Source: Mobula hypostoma
Lineage: Eukaryota
Reading direction: 5' to 3'
Assembly (NCBI RefSeq): GCF_963921235.1
Contig: NC_086097.1
Location: 126,296,001 to 126,360,000, forward strand
Length of the DNA stretch: 64,000 nt
The position numbers and the translations under genes were made by a program. The stretch's first letter is position 1. Each line of letters opens with the position of its first letter. This document shows, one piece after another, positions 2,150 through 63,877 of the stretch. The notes under the pieces are model-generated. The model ran no database searches. It was given only the letters and a program-made list of their open reading frames with translations, and was not told the DNA's origin.

Positions 2150-2400
2150 CAGTTGCTGTCTCTGCAGACGGTAGACTCGACGCGCCCGCCCGGTCCTGGA
2201 GACGGGCCGCTCGCGGCGATCCGGGGCGCGTTCCATCGCTGGAACGTCTGCGGCCGGTTTGTATCCGACCGTTAGGAAGGTCCGGCCTGACCCGCCAGGG
2301 CGGCGAGTGGCGCCAGCAACCCGGCTTGGCTCGGCCCGTCCAAATGGCTGAAGTAAGGCGCGTTAGACCCCTGAGGTCCCAGACCGACAATGCCCTGTAG
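2150..2400 (+). promoter_or_regulatory. CpG island / probable promoter and first exon
   Basis: GC- and CpG-rich non-repeat stretch in a CpG-depleted window. It ends at caaATGGctgaa|gtaagg (strong Kozak context plus splice donor). Confidence 0.7.
2344..2352 (+). CDS. TRP-like gene, coding part of exon 1 (MAE)
   Basis: ATG with A at -3 and G at +4, followed by a gtaagg donor. Phase 0 matches the next exon. Confidence 0.55.
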
Positions 2401-5400: not shown

Positions 5401-8400
5401 ATGGAATCTCCTATCACCACTGCACTCCCCTTCTCTTCCCTTCCCTTCTGAGCCACAGAGCCAGACTCAATTCCAGACACCTGGTCACTCTGGCTTCCCC
5501 CGGTAGGTCATCCCTCCCTCCCCCTACAGTACCCAAAGCGGTGTACTTATTATTGAGGGGAACAGCCACAGGGGTACTCTGCACTGGCTGCCTATTCCCT
5601 TTCCCTCTCCTGACAGTCATCCAGGGACCTGCCTTCTGCAACTAAGCGGTGACTACCTCCCCGTAGCACCTCTCATTCTCCCATATGAGCAGAAGGTCAT
5701 CAAGCTGCAGTTTCGGTACCTTAACATAGTCTCTATGGAGCTGCAGTTTGATGCACTGTGCAGATGTTTGTTATCGGGGGAAACTGAAGTCTCCCAAATT
5801 TTCCACATCTGACACAACATCTGGAACATACTATGACTCCAAATCCATTCTACTAGCTACGTACTAACAGTAAAAAAAAACTTACCACAAATTTTCTTTC
5901 TTACATAAAACCTCCGCCTGTGTTTGACTCAGCCTGTTGACAGAGTTGGAGAAACTGGGAGAAGGGAAAGGAGTCCTTAGAGGGAGCAGGGCAGAAGAAG
6001 TATGTTCAAGATAGATGAAGGAACCTGTAGGCTTTAATGGATGTTTGTGGCTAGCCTATCTACTGAAAAGAAAGCAGACTCACCATTTGATGGTGAGTGC
6101 ATTATGGAAAATGGTTGCAAACATAACTAAATTGTTGAACTCTAAATGAATACAGTAGCAACACCGATGCAGTTTGCCAATGTACCAGAAAATCAGTTGA
6201 GAAATGGGCCAAGAATGATTTCTACAAAGACAGTTCCATTTATCCCACACAAAAAATAGGCATAATTTAGAATTATGGGAGTGTCCATAGCTATCCTTTG
6301 ATCTAAGGAATGTGAGTACAGTTGAAGGAGAAATTGTTTAATGTGGGAATAAGTTAAATCAGGTGAATGATTGCGTTGCTTGGACCTTCCTATTATTTTC
6401 ATCCCAGAAGTTAATCTGGTTCCCTTGTAAACTATGACAGGTATATTAGTTAAGGTGTACAATTGTACAACAGTAAAAAAAAAACACAACCACTTACTGA
6501 TACTGACATACAGTAGATCTGGATGTTTTCTATCAGGGTGCAATCAAATTAGTTTCACAAAATCACATGGAAATGGTTGACAAAGTTTTCTATATTGCTT
6601 TTAGAAAAAATCTGGAGCAAAAGTTAAATCTATACAAACTGAACAAGATCAATACGAAAGCACGCAAAGGATGCGAACGGATGATAAAGATGGTAGGTAA
6701 AATCCTGATAATGGTTTAGCTTCCACAAAAAATCATTGACAATTGAATTGAATTGACTTTATTTGTTACATCCTTCTCATACATGAAGTAAAAATCTTTA
6801 CATTATGTCTCCGTCTGAATGTGCAATATGCAATTTATAGTAATTTGTAATAAATAGTATGTACAACAGGACAGTCAGTATGGCATAGAAATACAATTGT
6901 ATCAGTGAATTAATCAGTCTGATGGCCTGGTGGAAGAACCTGTCCCGAAGCCTGTTGGTCCTGGCTTTTATGCTGCAGTACCGTTTCCTGGATGGTAGCA
7001 GCTGGAACAGTTTGTGGTTGGGTGACTCGGGTCCCTAATCGTTGATGTTTACTACAGCTGAATGTAATGGCTTGAATCAGTAATTTCAATGGACACTTAT
7101 TATTGGAGATCTGAATGATTGTGTATACTATAAACAGTCCCTCAGAATCAAGCATGCTTTGCTTCCAGTTCAGTTTTGTGGTTTCTGAGATGCTAATGAG
7201 GCCAAAGTGTGAACGGCAGCTTTTCCATAGATGGGCCAGAACGTGGCTGAGAGTGGAAAAAGTGATTAACTAGTGACTCTCCTTTCCTGATGATTAAGCA
7301 GGGCTTCATTCGGCTGCTAGTAGTCTCAAGGGTCTCAACCATTTTGAATGCTCCTCCTCCAATTTCCGTTGTCATGGGCCAGAGTCATTTATATGTTCCG
7401 CTTATTCAAAGAAGCTTTGAGCATTTTGAATCTTTTTTTCTCTGTTTGCCGAGTAACCCCGTATGGTATAGCTCAGAAAAGAGTCCCTAGTTCAGGGATT
7501 TTCTGTCAGGCATGAGATTAATTGGCCAGCCCAACATAATAGACAGTTCTTTGGATGTTAATCTAGGAAACGTAGTTGACTTATCCTTCTTCTGAAAGTT
7601 GGAGGATATTGTGTACACCAATAGTGGTATCTTGCCCGTGTTTCAAATACCTTCTATAGGTAGTAATGTTCTCAGAAGCATGTAGAAAGGCAGGGGACAC
7701 TGCTGCATTGTAAACTAGGAGCTTCGTGCCAGGTCTGAGATCTTGACTTTCAACTACTTCTATTCCATAGTCATTCAGTGGCTATGAAGATGGTACTGAG
7801 TTTCATTGTTGATGCCTTCCTTAGAGGAAGCGGTCCATGTTTTCCAAGATCTTGTTGTAAATATTTATTACTGAAGTGCGATATAGTGCATTTGGAGCAG
7901 GCTGGTGGGGGCCTTGTAATTGCTACTATTGAGTGTAAGGCTATTCTGGCAATCTTTGGTGAGTGATTTGTTTTGGAGCTTGTCCTCTGAGTATGAGCAA
8001 GCACATGTATTATCTGCAGACTGCAGATCAAACACTAAAGGTTTGGATAACTTTGGTACTAGAGTGTAATTGCCACAGGATGAACAGGTTCTCATTAGTT
8101 TTGAACATAAGAACATAAGAAATAGGAGCAGGAGTAGGCTATCTGGCCCATCGAGCCTGCCCCGCCATTCAGTAAGATTCAATCTGTCCATAAACTCAGC
8201 TCCATCTACCTGCCTTTTCCCCATAATCCTTAATTCCCCTACTATGTAACAATCTTTCTAACTGTATCTTAAATATATTTAGTGAAGGAGCCTCAACTGC
8301 TTCCCTGGGCAGAGAATTCTACAGATTCACCACTCTCTGGGAAAAACAGTTTCTCCTCATCTCCGTCCTAAATCTTCTCCCCTGAATCTTGAGGCAATGT

Positions 8401-14400: not shown

Positions 14401-17400
14401 GCTCCTTTTTACTCAAGTCTTTACTTCCATCCACCATGATGGCAAAATATCCAGCCTCCTTTGATTTCTGCACTTATTTGACGTCTGACCATATCTGCCA
14501 TAATACCTATAATTTCATTTTGGATATCGTGATGGGTGTTTTTTGCATTTCCAGGATTGTCCTCTATTTTTTTAGCTACAGTCTTATCAAACTTCCCAAT
14601 TACACTGAGCAACTCAACAAAGTTTCCCCTATTGCCAGATCCATCATTCTCCTGGTGTCCTCACTGGGCAATGCCTTGGCACGCAGTATAGCTTAGAGAC
14701 TCAACCACTGCTCTCATATACTCACGATTTTCTTGGACAATCTTTGCATGTCCTTTATCAAGCATATTTCCCAATCTTGAACCGTCTTGTTTTCTCAATC
14801 AGAATTCGGCCCATGCCTCCATAGCAAACTTATGAGCTGCACTTACATGGTGGGTTTTGAAAGCTGTTGTAGCTTTCCGCCAGTTGCGGTAACCGGTGAC
14901 AGTGAAGGTAGACTCAGAATGGAACCCATGTCCTCCACACAGGAAATGCCTGCATGCGAAGCAGAATGTAGCATCTTTTGTGATTGAATATTCCAGCCAG
15001 GAGTACAGGTCAAACCAGCGACAAATACTCCTTTGCTGATTGCCAAACTGTTGCGAAGGGTACTTTTTCAATGCTGGCCGATGGGGTCCTTCCTCAGGCT
15101 GCTGGCTAACATCGCTAACAGTACTCCCACTAGCACTAAGAGCAGCTTCATCCACGTTCTCTTCCAAATCCCGCTCCATTTCTTGTTCTTCTATTTCGCC
15201 CTCACACTCCTTCGATGAACTGCTGTCGTCCTCATCCCCACTTACTTCTTTCTGCAGGTCACTTTCAACTAAGACAGGCTCAGGGTGAGACACCACTGAT
15301 TCCTCTGGATGAGGTCGTTTTCTGACTAAAAATCGATCCATTTTTCATGCCGGCCAAAATAACGCACGTTCCAGGCCCACGCTCGCTTGTAAAAGCACAA
15401 CGTGCGCGTGTGGCATTCTTTAGTCCCGCGAGACCATGAATCTGCGCCTGGATGTATACTGTCAGTCTCTCGCGTGAGTGAGAGTGAGTGACATCACCAC
15501 CTTAAGTGATCTTAGATCAGCTTAACTGATCTGAGGACAGCAACAGCAAAACATTGACAATGAAGGAGTAAGCAGAAGTGTAGAGTGGATCTGACAGAGT
15601 TTATAACTTTATTGCTGTGTGGGTGCTATGGTAATTGGGGGCGCTGTTTCACTAGATCAACTGGAGAAACAAGCTGTATTCAAAACTATACAGAGAAAGC
15701 AAAGCAGCTGCAGTTAATTTCTTGGTGGTGCTATGGTGGTGCTATTGCAATTTCTGCTGGGGCTATAGCCCCAGCTAGCACCACCTTAGTGCTGCACCTG
15801 CCTCATTCCTCTAAATTCTAATAAGCATAGGCTCAAGTTGTTCAGTGTTTCCTCAGAAGACAACCCCCTTCATCAATCTAGTGAACCTTCTTTGAATTGT
15901 TTCAGGTGCAGGTTCATTCCCTCCTTAAATAAGGATATCAAAATTCCATGCAATAATTTGAGGTAAGGTCTAATTAGTAACTTGTAAAACAGGCTACATT
16001 CTATTTAATTTCTTAATTAAGGGTATGCTGCACTTTTGTAGTTATATTCTAACATAGATCCCTCTATATAATTGATTTAGCTGGACCATATCTATTTAAA
16101 TAATATTCAGCTTTTTTATTTTTCTAACAAAGTCTTTAACCTAAGTCCTGATGCAGAGTTTTATCGCAACATGACAGTAATCCTTTTCCTCCCACAGATA
16201 CTGCTGAATCTGCTGAGTTCCTCCAACAGATTATTTGAAATCTTACATTCCAATGTATTTGCCAATTTTTTTTATTAAGTCACTTAACCTATCTGGGTCC
16301 TTTGAAAATTCTTTGTCTTCATCACAACTTGCTTTTCCTCCTATTTATATATTCTTGGCACAATTGGTTACATTACACTTGGTCTCTGTAACTGAGCCTG
16401 TGGACTGTATAATAACTATTGGAAAAATGATTAAAGTAAAAAGATCAGGTTTGATCATCCACTCAGTTATGCAGATAAATGTGAGTAATGTTGTGTTGTT
16501 TACTGTCATCCGAGGTTTGTACTAAACTGATTAACATTTTTTTTGTGACAGATTCTAGACATCCGTCTCTGGCCTTTGTAGGTTTAGAATGGATAAACTT
16601 CACTGGCGATGATTTCGATATTGATGTTGAGAAGTTTTCTGAAACCGTGGATTCAGTACATCTTCTGAGTGAAATTTTGATTAAACATTTTATTTCTATT
16701 TCAAAATCAAATCGTCCAGAACTAACGGTATGATTAAAAAGCAGGCATTTGTAATAGACAATACATGGAGGTATTGGTATGACATTGTAACACATGATAA
16801 TATAACCTGAGACTCAAGTGTTTTACAACGAGCAAAGCCACATGTTTAATACAGACAGGTAGATACTGTATTTGTATATTTGCTGGTAAAGTTTAAATAT
16901 GGTTGCTTTTATTTGACTTTCTTTAAAATCGCTAGATTGACACAAACTCTTTGTGTAATTCACAGGCACTGATTCTGATTCATGGAACTGGACTGATGAC
17001 AGGAAAATCACTCAAGTTTGCTGATGTTGTAACTCTGGGAATACCCTTCCCCCTTGCTGATCAGCAAAGACATACACAATACAGTGTTTTAGATCTATAG
17101 GTAGTTGGCATTGGTGCTGAATTTCACTGTAGGGTATTTTTATCAGAGTTGGAGAAGGCTAGGAAGAGGCTGGATATTAAAGACTTAGCTCGGAAAGACT
17201 AGAGAAACATCAAGTTAGGGGGTGCTGGAGATTGGGAGAGTTGGAGAAGGTTAGTAGAATGCTAGCACCTTTGGAGCTGGATTTTGATACGTTCAGTTTA
17301 AAGATCATGACTGAAATAACATTCAGATCCTTGTACCCACGTACATCCACAGTCTAAAATATAAGACAATGCACATATGTAATTCAATTATTATTCCATC

Positions 17401-20400
17401 AGAAACAGTATTTACTCATGCAAATTTTCACAAAACATGGATATCTTGTAGGTGAAGAGTTTGCTGGTTCATTTCCATGATGTTTCAGCAACTGATAGTC
17501 AAAGGGCTCTGTCAGCAAAGAGCCTGAGACATTTCATTGCGATATTGTGCTTTGTGGAAAGTATAACATCACAGCTAAATGTCCTGCTGGACTGATAGAA
17601 AGCCAAACAAGAAACAACCAATTGGACACATACGCCTATCTTCCAGTAAGAAAAGGTCATAAGTACTCACAGCTAAGAGAGAACTTGCTGGTAAGATATG
17701 ACAAAAAATGCCACAATCTCTTTGGAAGAGAATTTTATGATGTCATACCAGAGAGAAGTTTTTTTTGAGTATTTTGTACAAATATGATGATGACATCGAC
17801 TCAGGCCTGAGAGGCCAGCATCCGGCATTTTCATGCCTTACAAGGCGCGGAACGAGAGACTGTGTGGCACGCCACTCCTCATACAGACGTAAAGCTATTT
17901 GTACAAATAGCTGTAAAGTTAGCACAGCTAAAAAGCATTTGGATTGGAGCTCCTTCACTTTAATGTCCATTATGTGCTACAAATTAGATTTGATATAAAA
18001 TAGGGCCTTTGATACACATTGTTCATGTCCAGAACTCCAAACTAGTTCCCCCATGTATTGCAGGTGAGGTTGCATAGTAACTTCAAATGTCATAATTTTC
18101 ACTAAGCCTACAAGCATCATTGGCTATTCATTCTGAAGTAGACAAAATAAAAAGCTGAATCTTGTTTCACCATCAGGAAAAAAATATAAGCTTGCCTTCT
18201 GTGGAGTCAGAAAGATTACCTCATAGCAGTACCTCCTGCTTGAAGTTTGTTTCTCAGTGTTCTGTTCCTAACCTATTCTGCTCCCTCTAAGTACCCCTTG
18301 TCCCACCCTGTTGCTGATGTCTTTGGACTCTCACTTGAATGCCTGGCTAGCCCCGCTAATTTTCATGCCATTGATCCATACTCCTTTAAGTACCTGCAGC
18401 CCAACCCAAATGAATCCTGTCTCGCCCTCAGATTTGGCCCCCAAAACTCCCATTCTTCAGTGGAAACTAACTACCATGATGTCATATCTGACTATCTTTG
18501 TTCGCTACATTTAATGCTGTCAACATCTTTGGGCACCCACACTTGTGTGTATAGCTTATGTTTTGATCAAGATAAAGAGTTCAATATTATTTTCTCCTTC
18601 AAAACCTTAGAAAATATTAAAGTGACCTCTTAAAATTGAACAGTCTATGAACTCAAGTTTATTTTTCATATGTTAATTCAGAAGTACCAAGACCAATTAC
18701 ATTTTCTTTTTATTCTGAGTGGGATTGGAGAACAAAGTGAATATAGATTGATTCATAAACTTTGTGTGTAACCCAAGGTTATTCAAGCTCCTAAAATAAT
18801 AGCTGAAGTTACTGATACAGCAGGGGATTTAACATATCGTTTTGGCTATAAAAATGTCAAGTAGTCTCCTCACTTTTTTATTAAAGATCTTAATAGATTT
18901 ATTTTATGTAATAAACACAAGTCAGTTCCTTTTTTAAAAGTCTCGTTTTAAAAATTTGGACTGATATGTGAAGAAAGAATATTTATTGTATTTTAGGTAA
19001 ACCTCAATGTGGTACAAAAGTTAATACAAAAAGGAGCTAAAGTTGACACCATGGACAAGCATGGACAATCATTGCTTCATGAGGTATTTATTGATTCTTT
19101 TCAATTGTTGAAGTCACTCCACTCTTTAAGAAGGGGAAGGGGCAAAAGTCAGGAAATTATAAGGCTGACTTCTGTGGTTGGGAAGATTTTGGAGTCCAGT
19201 ATTAATGTAGGATCCATGTTTCTGTTTCCTATCTGCATTGTATTTTGTGTTGCACATTTATTATGGTAGTTAGTCACATGGGCTGAGGTGTGGTTGAAGT
19301 GAAGAGTTCAGTTATAGGTTCATGCTTTGTCTTTAGGGTCAATCTAGAGCTAAGGGAGTGAGCTGGGGGTGATATCATCTTTTTGTTGACCACTTAATTA
19401 TGTGTAATTACATTGAAGAAAGCTTAAGTATGTTTATTTTGCTATATTGCTAGTTTTAGTTTCATTAGTTTTTATGGCTTCAAGATTGTTTGTTTTGCTC
19501 GATTCTTAACAAAAGGTTGAATGATTCTTTGACTTTGGAACCCTGTTATTGGACTGGATTGGAAGGCATGTAATACAGGATCAAACCACCCCACCCCTTG
19601 CTTAGTCTCTGAGCGGTGTTGGTTTGTTCAAGTAGCTGCTACATTTTGTCAACAAAAAAGATTCAATAGATTTGATACCAAACGAACATTATTCTTCTGC
19701 AAGGACTACATTTGCACTTGTCAATGAAATTAGAATTGCAGCATGGAGAAACCGGAGAAGACCATTCTCACTCAGCCTGGGGTAAGCACTTTACTAAAGT
19801 CCTGGAGGTGCTCTGCATCACTCTTGCCAGTTACAATGATGTCATCGAGATCACATTCCATTGCTCTTTGCCAAATTGCTGGAGCTGATGCAATGCCAAA
19901 GACAAAATGATTATACTGGAACTGTACCATATAACCTACTGTATAATATAAGACTACTTTATGTTGTACCAATACATCGTATTGAGCATGCACTATTAGG
20001 TGCGTATTGATCTGTATATATGCGTTTGGTTCGGGTTCCGTAAGTAAAAAGCCCCTGTTAACTTAGCTTCAGTCTCTAGCATTCTTATTTATAGTTTTGA
20101 TGTGTAACCCGGCCACATACACAACAAATTGGCGACAAGGTCAATGAACCTGCATCGTATCAGAATGCTGTGTTTTAATTGATAACGGCACTCAGAAGAG
20201 GCAGAGTAAGGCCGCGAGTCTGAAAAGAAGCAAGAGTTCAGCCGGAGTTGGGAATGTCGGGAGACTGAAAGACATAGTAGGAGCCACGGCGTGTCCAGGC
20301 GAGACCACAGCCGGCGCTGAACTCCAGGGCTGAGGGTCTGCCGCCTCAGAAGGGAGATAAAAAAAAAGGAGTAACACACGCATCTAGCTAGAGTTCGCTC

Positions 20401-53400: not shown

Positions 53401-56400
53401 TTGGGAATCCTTGTGCAGGATTCCCTAAGGGTTATTTTTGTCCATGTTGCTTTTAAGTAAAACGTACTGACAGGATCACAAAGGATCCATTTTGGAACAT
53501 AAATCAGATTGATCACAAAGATGGAAATTGTTTTTAAAAGCTGCTGATGCCAGAATTATGAGATAAAAATAGATAATACTAGAAACTCACAACAGGTCAA
53601 AAAGCATCTGTAGAAAAAGAAACAGTGTTAATATCTTCAAACTGAAACGGTAACTTTATTTCTCTTCCCATTAAAACTGCTGACCTACTGACTGTTTCCA
53701 GCATTGTATGGTGATCATTAGAGTAAGGAGATCCTTAGAGATCAAATATTGACCTATTCCAAATATTATCCATGGTGATCTGGATTCATGGTGATGATAT
53801 AAGAGCATGAGACCACAAGATAGAGGAGCAGAATTAGGCCATTTGGCCCATCGAGTCTGCTCCGCCATTTCATCATGGCTGATCCATTTTCCCTCTCAGC
53901 CCCAATCTCCAGCCTTCTCCCCATATCCCTTCATGCCCTGACCAATCTAGAATCTATCAACTTCTGCCTTAAATATACATAAACACTTTGCTACCATGCC
54001 GCATGTGGCAACGAATTCGACAGGTTCATCACTCTCTGGCTAAAGAAATTCCTTGTCATCTCCATTCTAAAACAATGCTTCTCTATTCTGAGACTGTGTT
54101 CTGTTGTCCTAGACTCTCCCACTATTGGAAACAACCTCTCCAGATCCACTCCATTCAGGCTTTCCAGCATTCAATAGGTTTCAATTACATCACCTCTCAT
54201 TCTTCTGGATTCCATGAATACAGGCCCACAGCCATCAAACGCTCTTCATATGACAAGCCATTCAATCTTGGTTTGAGAAACTCCTTTGAATCCTCTCCAG
54301 TGTCAGCAAATCCTTTTGAAGATAAGGGGCCCAAATCCATTCACAATACTCCAAGTGAGGCCTCACCAGTGCTTTATTAAGCCTCAACATTACATCCTTG
54401 CTTTTATATACTCGTCCTCCTGAAATGATTAGTAACATCACATTTAGAGTTTTGAATTTTTGCTACATTTAGAAAATAGTCTACCCTTTTATTTCTTCTA
54501 CCAAAGTGCATAACCATACACTTTCTGACACTGTATTCCATCTGCCACTTCTTTCTCCTTCTCCTAATCTGTCTAAGTCCTTCTGTAGCCTCTTTACATC
54601 CTTAAAACTACATGCCCCTCCACTTGTCTTCGTATCATCTGCAAAAAACCATCAATTCCATCATCCAAGTCATTGACATATAATGTAAAAAGAAGCGGTC
54701 CCAACACAGACCCCTATGGAACACCACCAGTCATAGGCAGTTAACCAGAAAAGGTCCCCTTTATTCCCGCTCTTTACCTCCTGCCAATCAGCTACTACTT
54801 TATCCATACTAGAACCTTTCAAGGTAAAGATCTCTCATGAAAATTATAAGGGATTTTGGTGAGACTGAACCTGGAATATTATGTAGTTTTTTTGGTCTAC
54901 ACCTAAAGAGGGGTTATACTTCACGCGAACAGGATACAGTGAGAATAAACTGGATTGTTTCATGGGATTTGACATTTGATAACAGATTGAGTGTTCCAAA
55001 CCTGTATTATTGAGAACCAGGGCAACAATCTGAAAAAAGGGGCAAACCATTAAGAGATTAGTGAATAGATACTGTGTGGAAGCTTATTAGATTTCTGGTT
55101 GTTAGGAATAAAGGAAAGTTCAGGAAAAAGGTGTCGAGGTAGAAGATCTTGATGAATGTCATATCAGTGCTGTAGGGTAGGAAATCTATCATTCTTACCA
55201 TGTCTGGCCTACTTGTGACTCTAAATCCACAGCAATATAGTTATGACCTGCCCTCTAAAAAGGCCTAGTATGAGAGGTGATTGATAAGTTCATGGCTTAA
55301 GGTAGAAGGAGTCAGTTTTAGAAAACCTAACACATTTATTTTTCAACATAGTCCCCTCCTACATGTACATACTTAGTCCAGTGGTCGTGGCACATATAGA
55401 TCCCTTCTTTGTAGAAGTGGTCCACAACAGGGGTGCTTGATAAGTTCGTGGCCTAAAGTAGAAGGAGATGAGTTATTAATTTCAAACTTTCTGCATTATC
55501 ACTCAGAGTTGAACTGTAGGTGCATGTAACGAGAACGTCTTGGACCTCCAGGTGGTCCACAGCAGGGGTGATTGATAAGTTCGTGGCCTTAGGTAGACGG
55601 CGATACAGCTCTTGTTACATGCATTGGTGGTTCAACTCTTTGAGTGAAAATGCAGAAAGTTTGAAGTTAAAAACTCATCTCCTTCCACCTTAGGCCATGA
55701 ACTTATCAATCACCCCTGCTGTGGTCCACTTACTGGAGGTCCAAGATGCCGACTTCTACAAAGAAGGGATCCGGATGCTCCACGACTGCTGGGCTAAGTG
55801 TGTAAATGTAGGAAAAATAAATGTGCTAGGTTTTCTAAAAATGACTCCTTCTACCTTAGGCCACGAACTTATCAATCTCCCCTCGTAAGATCACTTGGAA
55901 TCCATCTGGAAAAATTGCCCTGTTAATCTGTACCTCTACTTGCTGGAAGGACATTGACTATAAAAGCCTGCAATCACAATCACAGAAGTTTTCTTCCAAG
56001 CAACACAGCATCCTAATTTAGAAATATATTTGAGTTCATTCACCGTCAATAGGTCAGGATCCTGGAATTCCATCCCTACCAACATTGTGGGTGTACCCAT
56101 AACTCAAGGATTGCAGCAGTTTAAGAAGGCAACTCACCTTCACCTTCTCTAGAGCAATTAGGGATTGGCAGTTAATTGCTGGCTCAGTCACTTCCCTTGA
56201 ATAAACAAAGAAGGGTCCAATATCTTATTCCTGCTGGCAGTTCTAGTGTTCTGAATATAACTCTGTAAATACATTGATGTGCTAAGTGTGATATATGTAA
56301 TGAAGAAAGCTTCAAAAGATAAATTATGATAAAGGTGTAATAACATTTTTTTTCATTTTAAGGTCAAAATGAAGCGGCAATGTTTCTCTTGAATCTTGGT

Positions 56401-59400
56401 TGTGATGCTGGTGCTTTGGATGCTTTTGATCAAAGTTCTTTGAATATAATGTTGCTCAACATGCCTGAAGTGGTAAAATACTTACTAAAATTACTTAGAT
56501 TTTCTGTAAAAGATATTAGCTTTATGGAATATGCTTAATTTTACCCCATAGCCATCTAGTACGGTGGGATATTTTTCAGTATGGTAAAACAAAATCTGCC
56601 ATAGTGTTTTTGCTTAGGGTGTCATTTGCAAACCTGACACAAATTGTTTATGTTTCAATTGTAGTCTGTTGCTTTTGATGGAACCTATTTTTACAGTGGG
56701 GAGCAATCAGCAATTGGTACATGTATTTAGCATTAGTGATTGAAAGTTATTTTTCTGAACCCAGGATAATTTCTATGCATAATGACAGTTGAACATCTTA
56801 CAGAGTGACTCATCCAGTCTGTTACTTTTGATTCCAACTGACAAAAAGTGCATTTGATGCTTCTGTTAGTCACATTTTCTATTTGATCTATTCTTAGTGA
56901 ATCTGCCATATACTGCTGTGCAAATCTTGGCAATGATGAACCAGAATTAAATCTCATAAAGGAGAACATTTCACTAACGTTATGAACTTGTGAAATAGTC
57001 AGCTTATTTTTACGGTTACATTATATTAGCTTATAATTGACCCCTGAAAGAAATTTTCCCTTTGTTGTTAAAAAAGATTCTTCTGTTATCACTTCTCTGC
57101 AGATTGCCTGAATCAGCTCCTACTGAATACTTTAAATTCTCAGCATCCACATTGTTTTACAGTTTTCAACCTACTAGTGCCTCTTTTGATTTTGGACTAA
57201 TCAAATGTCTTCTGGAAGCACAACCTTTTCCCTCTGACTTTGAATCTAGATCTTTTTCCTTAGTCACTGGCTGATTCAACCCAACCTTAACTTTTTCCTT
57301 CAACTAATGCAGCCTTCTGGCCCTCAGCCAATTCATGATAAATTGACCATATTATTCAATTGAGTATTGTGGAAGTGGAATGGGAGGCAACTGCAGAACC
57401 TCCAGGAACCTTATTGTGAACAACTTTGATCTTCAGAATCATGTTTAGAACATATAACATAGAACATAGATATCTACAGCACATTACAGCCCCTTTGGCC
57501 TACAATGTTGTGCTGACCATGTAACCTATTCTAGAAGCTGCTTAGAATTACCCTACCGCATAGTGTTATATTTCTCTAAGCTCCATGTACCTATCTAACA
57601 GTCTCTTAAAAGACCCTATTGTATCTGCCTCCACCACCATCGCTGGCAGAACATTCCATGCACCCACCACTTACTCCTGACATCCCCTCTGTATCTGCTT
57701 CCAAGCACCTTAAAACTATGCCCCTCATGTTAGCCATTTTATCCCTGTGTAAAAGCCTCTGGCTATCCACATGATCAATGCTTCTCATCATCTTATACAC
57801 CTGTATCAGGTCACCTCTCCTCCATCGCTCCAAGGAGAAAAGGCAAAGTTCACTCAACTTGTTTTCATAAGGCATACTCTCCAATTCAGGTAACATCCTT
57901 GTAAATCTCCTCTGCACTTGCTATAGTATCCACATCCTTCCTGTAGTTAGGTTACCAGAACTGAACACAGTACTCCAAGTGGGGTCTAATTAAGGTCTTA
58001 TGTAGGTGTAACATTACCTCAGGGCTCTTGTTCTCAATCCCACAGTTGATGAATGCCAACACACCATACGCCTTCTGAACAATACTGTCAACCTGCGCAG
58101 CATCTTTGAGTGTCCTATGGACGCAGACCCCAAAATCTCTCTGATCCTCCACTGTGCCAAGACTCTTACCATTAATACTTTATTCTGTCTTCATATTTGA
58201 CATACCAAAATGGGTTGAACTCCATTTGCCACTTCTCAGCCCAGTTCTGCATCCTATGCCCTGCTATAACCCTGATAACACTCCAGACTATCCACAACAC
58301 CCCAACCTTTGTGTCATCAGCAGACTTTCTAACCCACCCTTCCATTTCTTCATCCAGGTCATTTATGAAAATCACAAAGAGTGGTGGGGGTGTTCCCAGA
58401 ACAAATCCCTGTGGAACACCACTGGCCACCAACCTCCATGCAGAATATGAACCATCTACTGCCACCCTTTGCCTTCTGTGAGCAAGTCAATTCTGGATCC
58501 ACAGTGCAAGGTCTCCTTGGATCCTATGCCTCCTTACTTTCTGAATGACCCTTGCATGGGGAACCTTATCAAATGTCTTACTAAAACCCATATACACTGC
58601 ATCCACAGCTCTACTTTCATCAATGTGTTTTGTTACAACCTCAAAGAATTCAATCAGACTCATAAGGCACGATCTGCCCTTGACAAAGCCGTGCTGCTAA
58701 TCAGATTATGCCTCTCCAAATGCTCATAAATCCTGCCTCTCAGGGTCTTCTCCAACAACTTGCCCACCACTGAAATAAGACTCACAGGTCTATAATTTTC
58801 TGGGTTATCTCTATACCCTTTCTTGAACAAGTGGACAACATTTGCAACCCTCCAGTCCTCCGGTACTTCTCCCATCCCCATTGATTATTGCAAAGGTAAT
58901 TGTCAAAGGCTCAACAGTCTCCTCCCTCACTTCCCACAGTAGCCTGGGGTATATCTTGTCTGGTTCTGGTTACTTATCTAATTTAATGCTTCTCAAAAGC
59001 TCCAACATATACTCTTTCTTAATGTTTATATGCTCAAGCTTTTCTGCCACTGTAAGTCATTCCCAGAATTGCCAAGGTCCTTTTCCCCTTTGACAGATAT
59101 TAATATTAATCTGTTTTGTTTTTACTAATTACAAGCAAGAGAAAATCTGCAGATGCTGGAAATCCAAACAACACACACAAAATGCTGGAGAAACTCAGCA
59201 GGCCAAGCAGCATCCATGGAAAAAAGTACAGTTGACATTTCAGGCCCAGACCCAGCATTTTGTGTGTTGCTTTGTTTTTACTAATTTTGTCTTTGGCAAC
59301 ATTTTATGTGATACCAATTGTTTCTGGGGCTTTCTGGAGTTGTCATTGTAGTTTTATCACAAAAGCAGTAGGTAAGGTCAGTAGAAATGGAAAGGGATAG

Positions 59401-62400
59401 AGTGGATAGGTGATTCTTCAGAAATAGAATGAAGAATCTGTAGAATTTCTCTATCTGTAGAATGTTAAAATAGTTGGAGAAAATAAACAGAATCAATTGT
59501 TCTGGCATCATGTAAAGGAAGAAGCTACTATGTGTGTTGAAATCCATCAATCCTTTCAGGAAAGTCAAAATAGTGAAAGACATTGTTCTCTTATTCATTA
59601 GAAGACTATCAGAATATGTTATATATTATTGTTTTTTACTTCCATGACCACTAATGATTTTCTACCAGCCCTTTTTAGTCCATCTCTTTTCCTTCTATGG
59701 AAAGAATTCAGAATGTCCCGGGATAACCACAAAACAAAGAAAAACATCAACCCTGCCACAATAAACTAACAAAAGTACAATTAGCAACACTCTCCCCACA
59801 TGAGAAGAAAAGAGATTGCATAACGGCAACAAGAGCAACAACTGCCCCACACAGAAAAACAAATCATGCTAACTCATTCTCTGACTTACACTTGAACTGC
59901 TCAGTTTTTTAACTCAATACATTTTTCACAGCAGTCAAATAGACTTTTCCCATTGCTATTATATTTTTTTAGAAAAATCTGCAAATATCAAATGACAAAT
60001 ATTTAATCCTTTACAGGCATATTAAACATTGTGCACTGGATGCTTATGGTAAGCACGTTCTATAAAAATCAGATCAGATTTTGAAAATATTGGCTGAGAA
60101 AAAGAAACAGCAGCTTAAGGTTGATATTGAAGAACAATTTCTGAACATGTAGTTTGTGAGTACGTATCTACAAAACAGCTTTGAAAATATGGTTTCTGTC
60201 ATATCTGCACTAGGAAACTATGTGGTGATATTGCTTACATTTCTCTTTGAGTGATAACTTCAGGTCAAGTGACAGAGGTATCACAGGAATTTGTTTTATT
60301 ATTTATTTAGGGATACAGTACAGTAACAGGCCCTTCCAGCCCAATGAACTTGCACTACCCAATTATACCCATGTGACCAATTAACCTGCTAACTCATATT
60401 TCCTTGGTGTATTGGTAGAAATTGGAGCACCCAGAAGAAGCCCAGGTGGTCATGGGGTGAACATACAGGCTTCTTACAGACAATGGCTGAATTGCACCCA
60501 GATTGCAAGCATTGTAATAGTGTTATGCTAACCACTATGCTACCCATTAGAACTTTTATAGAGGAAGCATAGAAATGCTCACGTTCAAAAACTATGTACG
60601 CATACAGTCTTCAATGATGCCCACACTTATCTTGATGGCTTTGAGGAATTGTTTAGAACCAGATGATTTTTCTAGTCTGCTGATCTGCCTCCAGACAAAT
60701 TCATTTGTCCGTTGATGTCAAGATCGTCACCCTCAACTACCTAATTTCAGGATTATTTCAGGCATTTCCTGAATTTATATAATATCTCACAGTTTGCTTC
60801 TCACAGCAGCAATAGGGAGGCCTTTAATGGTTCATACTCAAGGACAAGGATTAACTCTGTTACAAAAGAAGTTGAGGTGAAGCAAACATATGGACTTTCT
60901 AACATGGCTGGCTTCTCTGAAGTTAAGACAATACACTGGTCTGCAAGCAATTAGGTCTCCCTTTCTGAAGTCAGTACATTATGATCCATGAGTTTCTGCT
61001 CCTTCAGTCTTCAAATTGTGATTGACCATTTGTGGTATCTCAATTTTCCAGAAAGCTTGCATAGGACTCTTATCCTCAATGAGTCCAATTTGATGGGATT
61101 CTTTGGGACCAACACTGCCCTAACTGCTGAACCTATTCATCATTCCCAGGCTTCGACACCCTGGCCATGCTTCAATAACAAGCCAGGGTAGCACCAGGGG
61201 TCTAGTGGAGAATGCCCTTATCTCTTGGATGAGATTTTGTTGTTTGCATCAGTATGTCAACATATAGAGGAGGTAGCCTCTGCATCCAACATATCTGTTA
61301 GTTCCATAATTTTGCCAAAAGGTCTTCAGCCCGAAGTGCTAAAATTGTTTCGCTTTCTACTGATGTTGCCTGATCTGCTGAGTATTTTCAGCATTTTTTC
61401 TGTTTTAGTTCAGATTTCCAGTATCTGAAAATACTTTAATTTTATTTACATTCTCCAGAGACAACTGTTGGGACCTGAAAACGATGTGCCTCTAGTTGAA
61501 GAAACTATATGGTTGTGACTCTGTTCCTGATCAAACTGCTTTTGGCTATTGCATTTATGTAAGGTGTGCATAACCTAAAAGTGACTATGTAGTGACTGGT
61601 CTCCTTTGAATAATCACACCACATCTCATCATGGATCCGTGTAAATACTAATAGCAATTCACCCTATTCACTGTTTTAGTCATGAAATCATGAAGTTATA
61701 AAGAGGCAATAGTGCATCCTTGCTTAATAGTTTTACACAAGACATTCTTTACAAATGATTACCTTTATTATGAGGAGGCTTAGTTCATTAACAGCTGTGG
61801 CTTAACAGTTTAAATAAAACAGCCATTTGGTAGTTATATTAATGTCTTTTACAATGCAAATGTTGGAGTGATGGAAAAGGACTGGATGATGTTTGAGAAT
61901 AAGACTAATGGATTTTTGCTGGGTTTACTATTAAAGAGCTATAGAAAAAAAGTTGGGTAATAATACATAGCATGAACTCAAAGAATGGTGAGACCATATT
62001 GTTTTTATGTAATTATGCCAACAATATGGTAGAAGCTGTTACTGACCATTAGTCAGACCAGAATATAACTAACAAGAATGACCAATTTGTTTCAATGTTA
62101 TATACTAATCGTTTTATAAATTCTCCCCCTCTGAAGGCATTTGATGCATTAAATCAGTTCTACCTACTTGATCATTCAAACCAAGTACAGTTCTTTTACC
62201 TGAAATACCTGGAGCCAGATATCTTTGAAGGTGGGATTTATTTTAATATATGAACCGACGATTGTTGTGAGCAGATCTAATTAAAGTGGTAATTGATTAT
62301 TGTGTATCATTTTCTGGATATTCACTGGCACTTCTGTGTGAAAGTATCGCATTAGATAAAAATGCTTGGAAGTCCTTTTCATTGCTTTCTTTGGAAGGGC

Positions 62401-63877
62401 CATCATTGGAAACTTGAGTCATGTAGTAAAATTTCAACAATTTGCTTGTGGGGCCAGGAACATTGGAAATGCTCCTCCAATTTCCACAATAACATCCTGG
62501 GATGCTGCTATATTGGTTTACTTCCTCTCCTCAGAATGTCCTCCTTCCCTCTAGACTTGCCTCAGTGGTATGCCCTAGGAAACAATCTGATTATCTGTTT
62601 GCATCCTACAAACCACGTGATATTGTAGTCATGCACTAATAATGGCTGGGCCTCCTGTAAGGGTGTTCAAGCAATCACCCACGCAAAATGCTGTGCTGTA
62701 TTTCTTCTTAAGGAGAGTCATACTAAAGCTTTGATTTAAGCCAGTACTGTTTGGATTTTAATTAAGGAGCTACCACAAAAGGATCAATTTCTCTAATGTT
62801 TATTTACTAGTGGGGGTAATGCACATTTTTATGTGCGTTGCTTAAGAATAAAGCCAACAGTTCTAATACTGAGACATGACTTGTTGCTCTTTGGGACAAA
62901 ATTAATTTATATCTTTGTCATTCTGCTCTTACTTTTAGAGCAAGAAAAAGACAGAAAACAAGCGGTAAGCATTTGGCAAAGAAATGGTAGATAAATTGCA
63001 TTCAGGTCAAGGATTCAGTAATTTACAATATTATTGATATTAACCTACTGTAAATGCAACAGAACTTCCCCTTCATTTGCTGTTGCTGGCTATCTCCCCT
63101 CTATCTTTCAATCCAGATGAGGAGTCTCAACCCGAAATGTCTATTTCTTTCTACAGATGCTATCTAACTCATTGAGTTCCTCCAGCTGTTTATTTTTTGA
63201 TTGAGGTTCCAATTTCTGCTGTCTCTTTGAAACTGAACTGGTCATTCCTATCCATAATTCAGTGTAACTACTTGTTTGCATTCTTCTAAATTTTAACTCT
63301 GTTTTATAGTTGTGGAGAAATATTCTTTAATCTTAAAAATGTAAATCATTGCAACACAAAAACTGTACTTTATTTTATGTTAATTGCATTTCAATGTACA
63401 ATTTAGGCAAGCAAATTTTGTCCCAGAAAAGCTGTGAAGAAATCTTCTCTACCATTATAAAGCCTCTCCCCCAACTCTCAACCTATATACCCCCATAATA
63501 AGTAGCAGTAGTCCTACACCTCTGAGTTTCTTGTTTCTATGCTCTGATGAACTCAGAGCAGCTTAGGCTGAAAATTATTGACATCACATTTAATATATTA
63601 AAGATGTGAATAAGAAGAATGCAATTCACAAAAGAAACTAGTGCAAAACTGTCACATACTACTTAAGGCCAACAACCACAAAGGTCTGAGGACTGGGACT
63701 CAGTAGGTCTTGGTAAGGAGGATGGATAAAGTGTGACCTCTAATTAAATTGTTTTTAAAAATATTGCTTTTTTGTTTCTTATTAGATTGACCTGATAGTG
63801 AAGCATCAGATATTTAATGTCTTAAAACACCCTGTTATTCAGCATTTCATTGACTTGAAATGGAAAAGATATGGATT
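2344..63877 (+). CDS. Multi-exon ankyrin-repeat TRP channel-like gene, 5' part (exons 2344-2352, 6605-6692, 16552-16727, 18997-19083, 31020-31170, 47203-47364, 56363-56472, 62137-62230, 62939-62964, 63786-63877); continues beyond the window
   Basis: Manual splicing with AG/GT boundaries gives end phases 0,1,0,0,1,1,0,1,0,2, all compatible, and 995 nt without a stop: MAEKKSGAK...[39 protein letters not shown]...[11 protein letters not shown]...[11 protein letters not shown]...FYLKYLEP...[16 protein letters not shown]. Confidence 0.85.
2860..5830 (-). mobile_element. CR1-clade LINE copies: a short 3' tail fragment plus an internally deleted copy with ORF1, endonuclease and RT-end remnants
   Basis: ORF1 esterase (5220..5641), endonuclease start YDIVGITES (4792..5040), RT end (3635..3826), cataagacatagg tail near 3165. 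Confidence 0.85.
4367..4667. mobile_element. Penelope-like (PLE) terminal-repeat-derived palindromic insertion
   Basis: 131-bp inverted arms (4405-4535 and 4537-4667), 13-bp TSD gtgtttttaacca (4354-4366 and 4668-4680), hammerhead-like core. Confidence 0.8.
6605..6692 (+). CDS. TRP-like gene exon 2 ([29 protein letters not shown])
   Basis: Pyrimidine tract with ttttag acceptor and gtaggt donor. The 88 nt are open and end in phase 1, matching the exon at 16552. Confidence 0.6.
6742..7040 (-). mobile_element. Rex1/Babar-type LINE 3' fragment
   Basis: (aattg)n tail; same family as 41340-42672 and 44060-44581. Confidence 0.75.
7170..8030 (-). mobile_element. Degenerate RTE-type LINE 3' fragment
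   Basis: Minus strand carries frameshifted remnants of ...KRFK..LKASL..., typical of the RTE ORF C-terminus. Confidence 0.5.
8104..10020 (-). mobile_element. CR1-clade LINE, 5'-truncated, RT domain
   Basis: [32 protein letters not shown] and LQRDIDRL motifs; gaacataagaacataag tail. Confidence 0.92.
10110..10756 (+). mobile_element. Rex1/Babar-type LINE 3' fragment
   Basis: Similar to 27550-28387; aataaactagattctgattctg tail. Confidence 0.7.
10958..11499. mobile_element. Non-autonomous Tc1-like element (MITE)
   Basis: TA flanks; TIRs cactcagtggctactttattaggta and tacctaatgaagtggctacatgagtg. Confidence 0.8.
12352..15800 (-). mobile_element. Full-length decayed hAT DNA transposon (ZMYM1-like transposase)
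   Basis: Perfect 8-bp TSD cctcattc (12344-12351 and 15801-15808), CAG...CTG ends, ggtgct subterminal repeats. Broken ORF 15341..12963 has a TTF-type zinc finger ([13 protein letters not shown]), [28 protein letters not shown] and a hAT dimerisation motif ([15 protein letters not shown]). Confidence 0.93.
16552..16727 (+). CDS. TRP-like gene exon 3 (DSRHPSLAF...SKSNRPELT)
   Basis: T-rich acceptor ending gacag and gtatga donor. Lies within ORF 16488..16733; phase 1 to 0. Confidence 0.75.
17785..17897 (-). mobile_element. Short 5'-truncated non-LTR retroelement tail
   Basis: 12-bp TSD tttgtacaaata (17773-17784 and 17898-17909); (tga)n tail. A related end with (cta)n occurs near 29515-29570. 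Confidence 0.6.
18997..19083 (+). CDS. TRP-like gene exon 4 ([29 protein letters not shown]), ankyrin
   Basis: ttttag acceptor, gtattt donor, ankyrin consensus. Confidence 0.9.
19206..19643 (+). mobile_element. LTR-like segment
   Basis: Begins tgtag and ends ctaca (5-bp inverted termini). Starts exactly where the CR1 sequence is interrupted. Confidence 0.5.
19770..19920 (-). mobile_element. Inverted Gypsy RT fragment
   Basis: [26 protein letters not shown] on the minus strand. Confidence 0.8.
19924..22605 (+). mobile_element. Gypsy LTR retrotransposon A: 5' LTR, PBS, gag and protease
   Basis: LTR ends ...cacaaca at 20126; PBS-like tggcgacaagg at 20130-20140. gag starts at ~20516 ([25 protein letters not shown] knuckle); protease [12 protein letters not shown]...LLGYEWL. 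Confidence 0.9.
20646..21551 (-). mobile_element. Non-autonomous PIF/Harbinger transposon inserted in gag
   Basis: TTA TSD (20643-45 and 21552-54); TIRs ggctacgtcttcacta and tagtgtggacgtagcc. Removing it restores gag [11 protein letters not shown]. Contains a Myb/SANT-like remnant (FFV*TDNEVEL) on the minus strand. Confidence 0.88.
22620..23000 (+). pseudogene. SUDS3: Intronless 5' retrocopy of SUDS3 (Sin3-HDAC subunit)
   Basis: MSAALL...SDEDTE..ETD...[53 protein letters not shown]; one stop and two inferred 1-nt deletions. Confidence 0.92.
23065..23725 (+). pseudogene. YBX1: Intronless 5' retrocopy of a Y-box cold-shock gene (YBX1-like)
   Basis: MSEAETEQQ...[40 protein letters not shown]...[12 protein letters not shown]...[12 protein letters not shown]...YSN; stop at 23470-72. 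YBX3 is not fully excluded. Confidence 0.88.
23860..27462 (+). mobile_element. Gypsy element B: gag end, protease, decayed RT, deleted integrase, 3' LTR-like end
   Basis: [31 protein letters not shown] and [20 protein letters not shown] motifs. Ends ...caaaacttaaca, where the CR1 sequence resumes. Confidence 0.85.
25548..27137 (+). mobile_element. Full-length Tc1 transposon (DD34E)
   Basis: TA flanks and ~200-bp TIRs with internal aaaagttggga direct repeats. Transposase from 25898 has [18 protein letters not shown] and [11 protein letters not shown]; 34 residues between D and E. Confidence 0.95.
27550..28387 (+). mobile_element. Rex1/Babar-type LINE 3' fragment
   Basis: [11 protein letters not shown]...ESILTGCI motifs; aataaacctgattctga tail. 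Confidence 0.85.
31020..31170 (+). CDS. TRP-like gene exon 5 ([50 protein letters not shown]), ankyrin
   Basis: Long pyrimidine tract acceptor, gtaagt donor, GRTPLH ankyrin motif. Not in the supplied ORF track. Confidence 0.92.
31310..31485 (-). mobile_element. Rex1/Babar-type LINE 3' UTR fragment
   Basis: Near-copy of 6742-6915 with (aattg)n tail. Confidence 0.75.
31677..34310 (-). mobile_element. Rex1/Babar LINE, long decayed copy (endonuclease and RT)
   Basis: [55 protein letters not shown] and [10 protein letters not shown] motifs; (aatcag)n tail. Confidence 0.93.
34539..34934 (+). mobile_element. Penelope-like element 3' fragment
   Basis: TSD agtttatttga (34528-38 and 34935-45); pyrimidine-rich UTR followed by the same terminal repeat as the hairpins. 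Confidence 0.7.
35393..35598. mobile_element. Penelope-derived inverted-repeat insertion
   Basis: 13-bp TSD taaacctgattct (35380-92 and 35599-611); ctgatga...gaaa core at 35466-35489. Confidence 0.75.
37518..38265 (-). mobile_element. Solo LTR
   Basis: TG...CA ends, 4-bp TSD caag on both sides, 748 bp, AATAAA on the minus strand near 37600. Confidence 0.8.
38525..39318 (+). mobile_element. Rex1/Babar-type LINE 3' fragment
   Basis: ERVSNFKFL and HALFLLLPS motifs; (ttgaac)n tail. Confidence 0.8.
41340..42672 (-). mobile_element. Rex1/Babar LINE nested in the Gypsy element
   Basis: [13 protein letters not shown] and [10 protein letters not shown] motifs; (aattg)n tail. Confidence 0.85.
44060..44581 (+). 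mobile_element. Rex1/Babar LINE 3' fragment nested in the Gypsy integrase
   Basis: Inverted relative of 41340-41850; (aattc)n tail. Confidence 0.85.
45750..47150 (-). mobile_element. Highly degenerate CR1-clade LINE
   Basis: Residual similarity to 8104-10020 (ccttctggaaatctaag = LDFQK on the minus strand). Confidence 0.6.
47203..47364 (+). CDS. TRP-like gene exon 6 ([22 protein letters not shown]...[10 protein letters not shown]), ankyrin
   Basis: ctctag acceptor, gtaaat donor, two TP(F/L) ankyrin motifs; phase 1 to 1. Confidence 0.92.
48575..49938 (+). mobile_element. HERO-clade (restriction-like endonuclease) non-LTR retrotransposon, 5'-truncated
   Basis: [33 protein letters not shown] knuckle, [28 protein letters not shown] motifs; (ttcaa)n tail. 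Confidence 0.85.
50120..50535 (-). mobile_element. Non-LTR retroelement 3' UTR fragment, family unresolved
   Basis: (ttaga)n tail followed by ttttattg (AATAAA on the minus strand) and a CpG-retaining body. Confidence 0.45.
51080..52260 (+). mobile_element. Highly degenerate CR1-clade LINE
   Basis: Remnants Y.DFQAFSK, WIASWL and GQMNFN. Confidence 0.6.
52521..52719. mobile_element. Penelope-derived palindromic insertion
   Basis: 72-bp inverted arms (52552-52623 and 52648-52719), 13-bp TSD atcaaaatattca (52508-20 and 52720-32); same subfamily as 4367-4667. Confidence 0.8.
52905..53435 (+). mobile_element. CR1-clade LINE RT fragment
   Basis: VDVVYL, QGSVLG and MHFGRKN remnants. Confidence 0.7.
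53805..54820 (-). mobile_element. CR1-clade LINE 3' fragment
   Basis: catgagaccacaagatagagg tail; [12 protein letters not shown] on the minus strand. Confidence 0.8.
55271..55885. mobile_element. Mariner-derived non-autonomous element with reiterated termini
   Basis: TA flanks; TIR ...gtgattgataagttcgtggcctaaggtagaaggag; transposase C-terminus [13 protein letters not shown]. Confidence 0.82.
56363..56472 (+). CDS. TRP-like gene exon 7 ([37 protein letters not shown])
   Basis: ttttaag acceptor and gtaaaa donor. Completes an ankyrin repeat; phase 1 to 0. Confidence 0.88.
57445..59095 (-). mobile_element. CR1-clade (HER1-like) LINE, 5'-truncated
   Basis: [39 protein letters not shown] and QRRFTRMLP motifs; (aacatag)n tail. 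Confidence 0.9.
59135..59272. repeat. Penelope terminal-repeat fragment with inverted ends
   Basis: aatctgcagatgctggaaatcc...aaatgctgg paired with ccagcattttgtgtgttg. Confidence 0.65.
60295..60545 (-). mobile_element. tRNA-derived V-domain SINE (HE1-like)
   Basis: Minus strand starts ggtagcatagtggttagca (A box), has a V-domain-like tctgggtgctcc core and a (taaa)n tail. Confidence 0.7.
62137..62230 (+). CDS. TRP-like gene exon 8 ([31 protein letters not shown])
   Basis: Pyrimidine tract with aag acceptor and gtggga donor. Resembles the TRP linker between ankyrins and pre-S1. Confidence 0.82.
62939..62964 (+). CDS. TRP-like gene 26-nt micro-exon 9 (EQEKDRKQA)
   Basis: ctcttacttttag acceptor and gtaagc donor. 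Needed to convert phase 1 to phase 0. Confidence 0.65.
63786..63877 (+). CDS. TRP-like gene exon 10 ([30 protein letters not shown]), pre-S1 helix
   Basis: ttcttattag acceptor and gtaagt donor. The HPV...LKWKRYG motif is typical of the TRPA/TRPV pre-S1 region. Confidence 0.88.

Follow-up and report, generated by a model that had tools for sequence, protein, structure and literature searches.

The locus analyzed here raises the question of which TRP channel family a gene with unusually few ankyrin repeats belongs to, and whether it represents an invertebrate-type lineage retained in a cartilaginous fish. We examined a stretch of 64,000 nucleotides from the ray Mobula hypostoma (the window; positions are numbered from its first letter), for which a sequence-only reading had proposed a non-canonical short-ankyrin TRP channel gene. 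All motifs cited in that reading lie on the + strand. The window very probably holds the 5' half (exons 1–10) of an intact, transcribed gene of the TRPVL family, called Trpw in vertebrates, and specifically of its Trpw2 sub-clade.

Ten exons between positions 2344 and 63877 join in phase, with AG before and GT after the exon at all internal junctions, into 995 nt that encode 331 aa without a stop (Table 1). Exons 2–10 were placed by tblastn with related proteins, and exon 1 was read directly from the sequence. The 331-aa product ends where S1 begins; the transmembrane (TM) exons sit past the right edge of the window, and the six-TM domain is taken from orthologues. The CpG island over exon 1 is the only one of 319 200-nt intervals to reach both values given in Table 1, and no in-frame ATG precedes exon 1 in the window sequence before a stop is met. 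The tripeptide MAE of exon 1 occupies the matching place in the Narcine protein (P0012).

Table 1. Coding exons and promoter-associated feature of the Mobula gene within the window
Feature	Position	Strand	Evidence
CpG island over coding exon 1, probable promoter / 5' end	2201..2400		GC at least 0.6 and CpG o/e at least 0.6
Coding exon 1: start codon, 3 codons (MAE), GT donor	2344..2352	+	MAE also opens the catshark protein (P0014)
Coding exon 2, N-terminal low-confidence region	6605..6692	+	tblastn 70% to Narcine; AG/GT
Coding exon 3, pre-ankyrin helix / cap	16552..16727	+	tblastn 79% to Narcine, E 7e-25
Coding exon 4, partial ankyrin and beginning of repeat 1	18997..19083	+	tblastn 80%; weak ankyrin HMM match
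Coding exon 5, ankyrin repeats 1–2	31020..31170	+	tblastn 82%; ankyrin HMM
Coding exon 6, ankyrin repeats 3–4	47203..47364	+	100% to M. birostris XP_072105122.1, 53 aa
Coding exon 7, last part of repeat 4 plus degenerate fifth helix pair	56363..56472	+	tblastn 97% to M. birostris, 78% to Narcine; orthologue model
Coding exon 8, linker with beta-hairpin	62137..62230	+	tblastn; spliced contig; strands 315–326 in orthologue model
Coding exon 9, 26-nt micro-exon	62939..62964	+	both sides joined in one contig, run X5
Coding exon 10, pre-S1 helix (HPV...KW motif)	63786..63877	+	tblastn, AG junction and frame, contig; gene runs past the window

A 183-nt contig (depth 3.2) from run X5, presumably an RNA run, links exons 8, 9 and 10 directly, leaving out the introns between them, and its 708-nt skip reads GT..AG. 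At position 62963 this contig reads T against C in the window, so that the codon specifies Val, the residue of the M. birostris model, instead of Ala; this is an allele or species difference. Between 61400 and 64000, the other three of the four runs gave no exon cover, only short repeat or chance matches, and such contigs show presence, not absence. A lookup with exon 3 listed no RNA run containing that exon.

We counted ankyrin repeats with a generic HMM, which was trained on 124 repeats from 10 proteins that do not belong to the TRPVL/Trpw family. It finds four clear repeats in the product (residues 122–144, 146–176, 181–211 and 214–239; scores 13–28) and a weak N-terminal piece at residues 93–112 (score 5.5). 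The AlphaFold model of the Narcine orthologue contains four canonical ankyrin helix pairs flanked by one degenerate pair on each side. A count of four complete and two partial repeats, as in the sequence-only reading, is therefore fair, and its estimate that pre-S1 is reached after about 330 aa agrees with the spliced product. That reading had named additional ankyrin exons as one observation that would speak against it; none was detected in 3338 six-frame segments of the window, where E < 0.01 is reached by the known exons at 31020 and 47203 alone. With the same HMM, catshark trpw1, zebrafish and Capitella rows also have four repeats, whereas a TRPA-like control gives 15 matches against the four or five of the window product. 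TRPV5 and TRPV6 have six ankyrin repeats, TRPA1 about 14–18 and TRPN about 29, an array of the last kind being absent from the window product.

Orthologues supply the remainder of the protein. The M. birostris protein XP_072105122.1 is identical to the window product at 158 of 160 shared residues. The orthologue of Narcine bancroftii (863 aa) is 80% identical and colinear, with 1 gap in 325 columns, and that of the catshark Scyliorhinus canicula (XP_038666132.1, 825 aa) is 56% identical over the window part, with 5 gaps in 333 columns. Frog, lamprey, tunicate and bivalve proteins are 37–43% identical. Among the best 120 of 266 matches in the protein search, 25 cover at least 70% of the query and the others are ankyrin-only. 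The Pfam Ion_trans family scores above its cut-off of 25 in the M. birostris protein (P0001, 26.3) and the catshark protein (P0014, 32.7); the Narcine orthologue does not reach this threshold. The Narcine protein was modelled with AlphaFold (mean pLDDT 68.9, 19 sequences); besides the ankyrin stack, the model contains a linker with a beta-hairpin, pre-S1, six long helices plus a pore helix, and helices at the C-terminus. The six TM helices and pore that the sequence-only reading expected downstream, and that characterize TRPVL/Trpw proteins, are thus seen in orthologues, in part by Ion_trans and in part by the model. The complete Mobula protein would measure about 820–870 aa and comprise a short ankyrin domain, the linker, pre-S1, S1–S6 with a pore loop, a TRP-like helix without the TRP-box Trp, and C-terminal helices.

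The public M. birostris model opens with 65 aa from a segment corresponding to window positions 43830–44024 (intron 5), which replace five true upstream exons. The corrected exon structure repairs this model, which misses exons 1–5. In 43830–44024 no Pfam match was found; we take the segment to be retroelement pol-like, presumably together with RT/RNase H- and integrase-like ORFs at 43074–43616 and 44786–45100.

Because several database models are truncated, with that of M. birostris stopping just after S6 (508 aa) and those of Callorhinchus, Heterodontus, Pristiophorus and S. torazame being fragments, the gene might be decaying or non-conducting in Mobula, either as a pseudogene in its downstream part or as a modulatory subunit only. 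Ion_trans scores that are weak or missing, low RNA depth, and ray Trpw2 branches about three times longer than those of Trpw1 (tree 1, below) would fit such a state. We nevertheless regard it as unlikely. Ten intact exons with canonical splice sites are maintained across 61 kb of repeat-filled introns, the product remains close to that of Narcine, full-length ORFs are present in the Narcine and catshark orthologues, and Trpw2 keeps the pore R and D, the S4–S5 Gly and the pre-S1 Trp.

The introns contain numerous remnants of mobile elements. On the + strand of intron 4, at about 20520–25200, two tandem intronless mRNA-like pieces break up a decayed Gypsy-type element that has an aspartyl protease (Pfam E 1e-5). 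The first, which shares the frame of the protease ORF, is an Sds3-like coding start (about 22620–23005, E 5e-5), and the second, at about 23010–23740, carries a cold-shock domain (E 3e-20) and is presumably YBX1-like. A second protease-like stretch follows at about 23970. The element looks as if it had captured two host transcripts. A broken hAT-like transposase (DUF4371, E 1e-6) lies on the - strand of intron 2 at 12963–15344, and a Tc1/mariner-type DDE_3 transposase remnant (E 2e-18) on the + strand at 26309–26875. LINE reverse-transcriptase remnants, which we take to be CR1/L2-like, are found at 417–1544, 8100–9530, 28390–29360, 31680–34440, 48515–49650, 53000–54820 and 57600–58490.

To which family does the intact gene belong? 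We assign it with high confidence to TRPVL/Trpw, sub-clade Trpw2. The vertebrate branch of TRPVL was renamed Trpw by Mayeur et al. in 2024 (PMC11979771). Passages of that paper report Trpw in chondrichthyans, lamprey, frog, lungfish and fish, and trpw1 in chondrichthyans, Xenopus, lungfish, zebrafish and gar; they describe all trpw1 and trpw2 proteins as having four ankyrin repeats and six TM helices, and their tree places Trpw as sister to Trpa, with a separate Trpa in catshark. The window product has the four ankyrin repeats before the membrane domain by which these passages define the family, as do catshark trpw2.1–2.3. Domain order and ankyrin count are likewise shared with the Trpw1/TRPVL proteins of Xenopus (XP_012809940.1), zebrafish (si:ch73-193i2.2), Capitella, molluscs and cnidarians.

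A hemichordate TM-region query returned, among the best 120 of 315 matches, echinoderms, hemichordates, amphioxus, tunicates, molluscs, annelids and a sea anemone, and, from the vertebrates, sharks, rays, chimaera, coelacanth, amphibians (frogs and salamanders) and teleosts; lamprey members also appeared in our protein searches. No amniote occurs among the 110 named rows of these best 120 of 315 matches, in agreement with the earlier suggestion of a lineage not known from mammals. The suggested kinship with marine-invertebrate TRPVL or "pyrexia-like" proteins is borne out as well: the 42 family rows of tree 1, which include invertebrate TRPVL-type proteins, split from four TRPA-like outgroups at SH-aLRT 100. 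Two parts of the sequence-only reading fall away. The gene is not a relic peculiar to cartilaginous fish, given the frogs, salamanders, coelacanth, teleosts and lamprey above and the published Trpw (PMC11979771, in the passages cited), and it is not the invertebrate-type copy, being the divergent vertebrate paralogue Trpw2 rather than trpw1. The literature already contains both the family and its cartilaginous-fish members; the ray gene is neither invertebrate-only nor new to vertebrates, and its occurrence in a ray is unsurprising because the family has been published for sharks.

The family has been hidden by misleading database names, Trpw1-type genes being called TRPA1-like, TRPV3/5/6-like, pyrexia-like, XCAT2 or si:ch73-193i2.2. 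In one table of PMC12980990, the Capitella member (protein 184604) appears as "Ctel-TRPV3" and a scallop member as "TRPV6-like-2". The lists in the parts of PMC12980990 and PMC9242649 that we consulted share no TRPVL-labelled accession with our rows, and lists sought in parts of bioRxiv 2021.11.14.466824 and PMC7306681 matched no row to a published TRPVL accession. The choanoflagellate TRPW of bioRxiv 10.64898/2026.06.15.732144 and.732245, described in passages there as defined by WD40 and lost in animals, shares the name only; in Pfam the orthologues analyzed here have just ankyrin and Ion_trans families and no WD40.

The TRPVL fingerprint has A at the position of the TRP-box Trp (Table 1 of PMC9242649, a source seen in part). 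In our alignments, all 120 Trpw1-type rows have A or S here, and the 10 Trpw2 rows have I, L or V (8), E (1) or a gap (1). Both groups thus show the published Trp-less TRP box, W never occurring, although Trpw2 does not keep the fingerprint A.

Solved TRPA1, TRPV and NOMPC chains are 15–20% identical to the orthologue model in Foldseek, consistent with a short-ankyrin TRP outside TRPA1, TRPV, TRPC and TRPN as originally proposed. Foldseek ranks TRPA1 first, with TRPV5/6, TRPV3, Nanchung-Inactive and NOMPC close behind, while a profile of mostly TM fragments searched against the PDB puts TRPV6 and TRPV5 on top (E about 1e-26 to 1e-24); we therefore place the family about equally far from TRPA1 and TRPV. 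Full-length PDB sequence searches, most representative-search rows and most VIA second-look rows were dominated by ankyrin proteins.

The profile result, in which pre-S1 LKWK.YG, GPF, the S4–S5 linker and the filter Asp align with TRPV5 and TRPV6, together with the extra TRPVs of chondrichthyans (passages of PMC9664204), could be taken to indicate a divergent TRPV5/6-type (TRPV7/8/9) epithelial calcium channel. We consider this very improbable. Identity to TRPV5/6 chains is 16–20%, against 33–42% to invertebrate and frog TRPVL; TRPA1 comes first in the whole-model Foldseek comparison; and Trpw2, with its four canonical ankyrins and 15–20% identity to solved TRPVs, has neither the TRP-box Trp nor the 12-residue fingerprint of TRPV1–9, the Trp being part of the TRPV fingerprint in the passages of PMC9242649. 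Equally remote is a shortened TRPA1 or pyrexia-like channel, as the NCBI names of the orthologues imply: TRPA1 is the best whole-model TRP match (Foldseek E 2e-16; VIA Z 21.6, 513 aligned, rmsd 8.3), shares the canonical ankyrin stack leading into a beta-hairpin linker and pre-S1 as well as the TRP-like helix without Trp, and has Trpw as its published sister, but Trpw2 has about a quarter of its ankyrin repeats and no long array, reads N-L-L-[IL]-A in S6 where TRPA1 has N..IG, is 15–18% identical, and stands apart, together with its family, from the TRPA-like rows on a long branch (support 100), in addition to the catshark's own Trpa (passages of PMC11979771).

Within the family, the paralogue was assigned from three trees. 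Tree 1 comprised 46 rows (the 42 family rows and four TRPA-like outgroups; no TRPV, TRPC or full TRPN) and was a quick search under a mixture model with long branches. The window row falls into a chondrichthyan clade of eight rows (the window, M. birostris, Narcine, two catsharks, Heterodontus, Pristiophorus and Callorhinchus XP_007901655) with SH-aLRT 100, and an enclosing clade of 12 rows, supported at 99, adds a second Narcine gene and three lamprey paralogues. The Trpw1 group contains Danio, Xenopus, coelacanth, other shark and ray genes, and invertebrates. Two later outgroup-free trees drew on the 46 rows with outgroups and near-duplicates left out (27 rows) and additionally without fragments, the window and Callorhinchus rows among them (22 rows, mixture model); both recover the Trpw1/Trpw2 split at 100/100. 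According to passages of PMC11979771, published trpw2 comprises three catshark genes (trpw2.1–2.3), one of Callorhinchus and three of Petromyzon, and trpw1 comprises Xenopus, Danio, chondrichthyans and invertebrates. Our Trpw2 clade matches this make-up.

These results bear on whether the window gene could be Trpw1 itself, which is the conserved, invertebrate-like TRPVL and is expressed in olfactory neurons of the catshark. The same architecture and ankyrin motif, and the identity to frog, tunicate and bivalve members given above, would suit that assignment. Against it, rays and sharks (Hypanus, Pristis, catshark P0345, Callorhinchus XP_007901656) have a separate Trpw1, the catshark orthologue of the window gene is just 35% identical to P0345, and the window gene's clade shows neither orthology with Xenopus, Danio or catshark trpw1 nor the invariant pore signature RxTLVD[DE]Y, which is altered. 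The 100/100 split refutes identity with Trpw1 unless the published trpw1 label denotes XP_038666132, and we give this explanation hardly any weight. The window gene is the divergent, fast-evolving vertebrate paralogue Trpw2, and not the conserved invertebrate-like trpw1.

In both outgroup-free trees, all vertebrate Trpw1 and Trpw2 rows lie on one side of a branch (93/87 with 27 rows, 97/92 with 22 rows), with tunicates next. An AU test on the 27 rows (LG+G4) rejected an old, cnidarian-branch origin of Trpw2 (p 0.003); the group had been named after the trees had been seen, branches are long and, of the two "cnidarian-type" rows, one has no name. From the shared side of the branch and this rejection, Trpw2 is probably a vertebrate duplicate. 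Rooted tree 1 instead puts Trpw2 outside all Trpw1, with the invertebrates as one clade, at a support of just 85; this looks like long-branch pull to the outgroup. Consecutive accessions of the Callorhinchus Trpw2 and Trpw1 proteins (XP_007901655 and XP_007901656) and the location of both genes on contigs of equal size in catshark and in Heterodontus suggest, from accession order and contig size rather than coordinates, that Trpw2 probably adjoins trpw1 on the chromosome. Separately, Narcine has a second, very divergent Trpw2 paralogue (XP_069752421.1, P0213) on another chromosome, in which HEQW replaces the filter Asp motif.

The pore loop distinguishes the two paralogues. Across Trpw1-type rows, R, T, D, D/E and Y of RxTLVD[DE]Y are invariant (120/120), the second filter acid being D or E throughout. 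The 10 Trpw2 rows keep R (10/10) and the first acid (10/10; nine D, one E), whereas the second acid is present in one. Both types share the pore pattern R..[ST]..D and the Trp-less TRP box; in Trpw2 the second filter acid is lost, DTFQRVYDNA after S6 is replaced and evolution is faster. HMMER aligns isvvD of the family with LTIID of TRPV6; the alignment is weak, and a two-residue gap immediately precedes the aligned residue. The filter Asp of TRPV5 and TRPV6 is their main Ca2+-selectivity site, and the filters of TRPV1–4 and TRPA1 contain glycine. An aspartate at the TRPV5/6 position (D in 9/10 Trpw2 rows) bears on mechanism, not on family membership. Since the Trpw2 filter has no glycine and its Asp aligns with the Asp of TIID in TRPV5/6, a single residue, we infer a preference for Ca2+; since the next acidic residue is lost, Trpw2 probably selects less strongly than Trpw1. 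It is reasonably likely that Trpw2 forms a functional Ca2+-permeable channel.

We hypothesize that the protein would assemble as a tetramer, alone or with its paralogue, by analogy with other group-1 TRPs, and that cations would pass through this tetramer with a preference for Ca2+. Some chemical or physical stimulus could then admit Ca2+ into a limited set of cells belonging to a sensory or ion-transporting epithelium. The short ankyrin stack could not be a gating spring of the TRPN type and would more likely serve assembly and ligand or lipid regulation. Passages of PMC11979771 report trpw1 expression in catshark olfactory neurons and name trpw1 as the sole Trpw in their catshark sensory-organ enrichment list; a sensory role is in print there for trpw1 only. 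For the Trpw2 paralogue a sensory role is conceivable, although we lean slightly against it.

On Trpw2, the passages of PMC11979771 give expression just for trpw1 and contain no Mobula or Narcine gene, no linkage to trpw1 and no pore analysis; the vertebrate-duplicate origin, the probable linkage and the pore comparison go beyond that account. Our PDB sequence, profile and Foldseek searches found no solved TRPVL/Trpw structure. The literature search, judged mostly by titles and abstract openings and with subscription papers outside its scope, found no functional study of an animal TRPVL/Trpw channel, nor any literature under the zebrafish name si:ch73-193i2.2. The value of the gene lies in this group-1 TRP family, for which our searches found neither structure nor functional study. 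Tentatively, and with doubt as to whether all its parts hold together, Trpw2 may be a local duplicate of trpw1 from early vertebrates, kept in lampreys and cartilaginous fishes and still beside trpw1, whose retuned filter would prefer Ca2+ and serve a job of its own in sensory or ion-transporting cells of sharks and rays. The TRPV6-like filter Asp gives a specific, testable prediction, and the difference between an acidic (D/E) residue in Trpw1 and a neutral one in Trpw2 offers a ready-made natural comparison.
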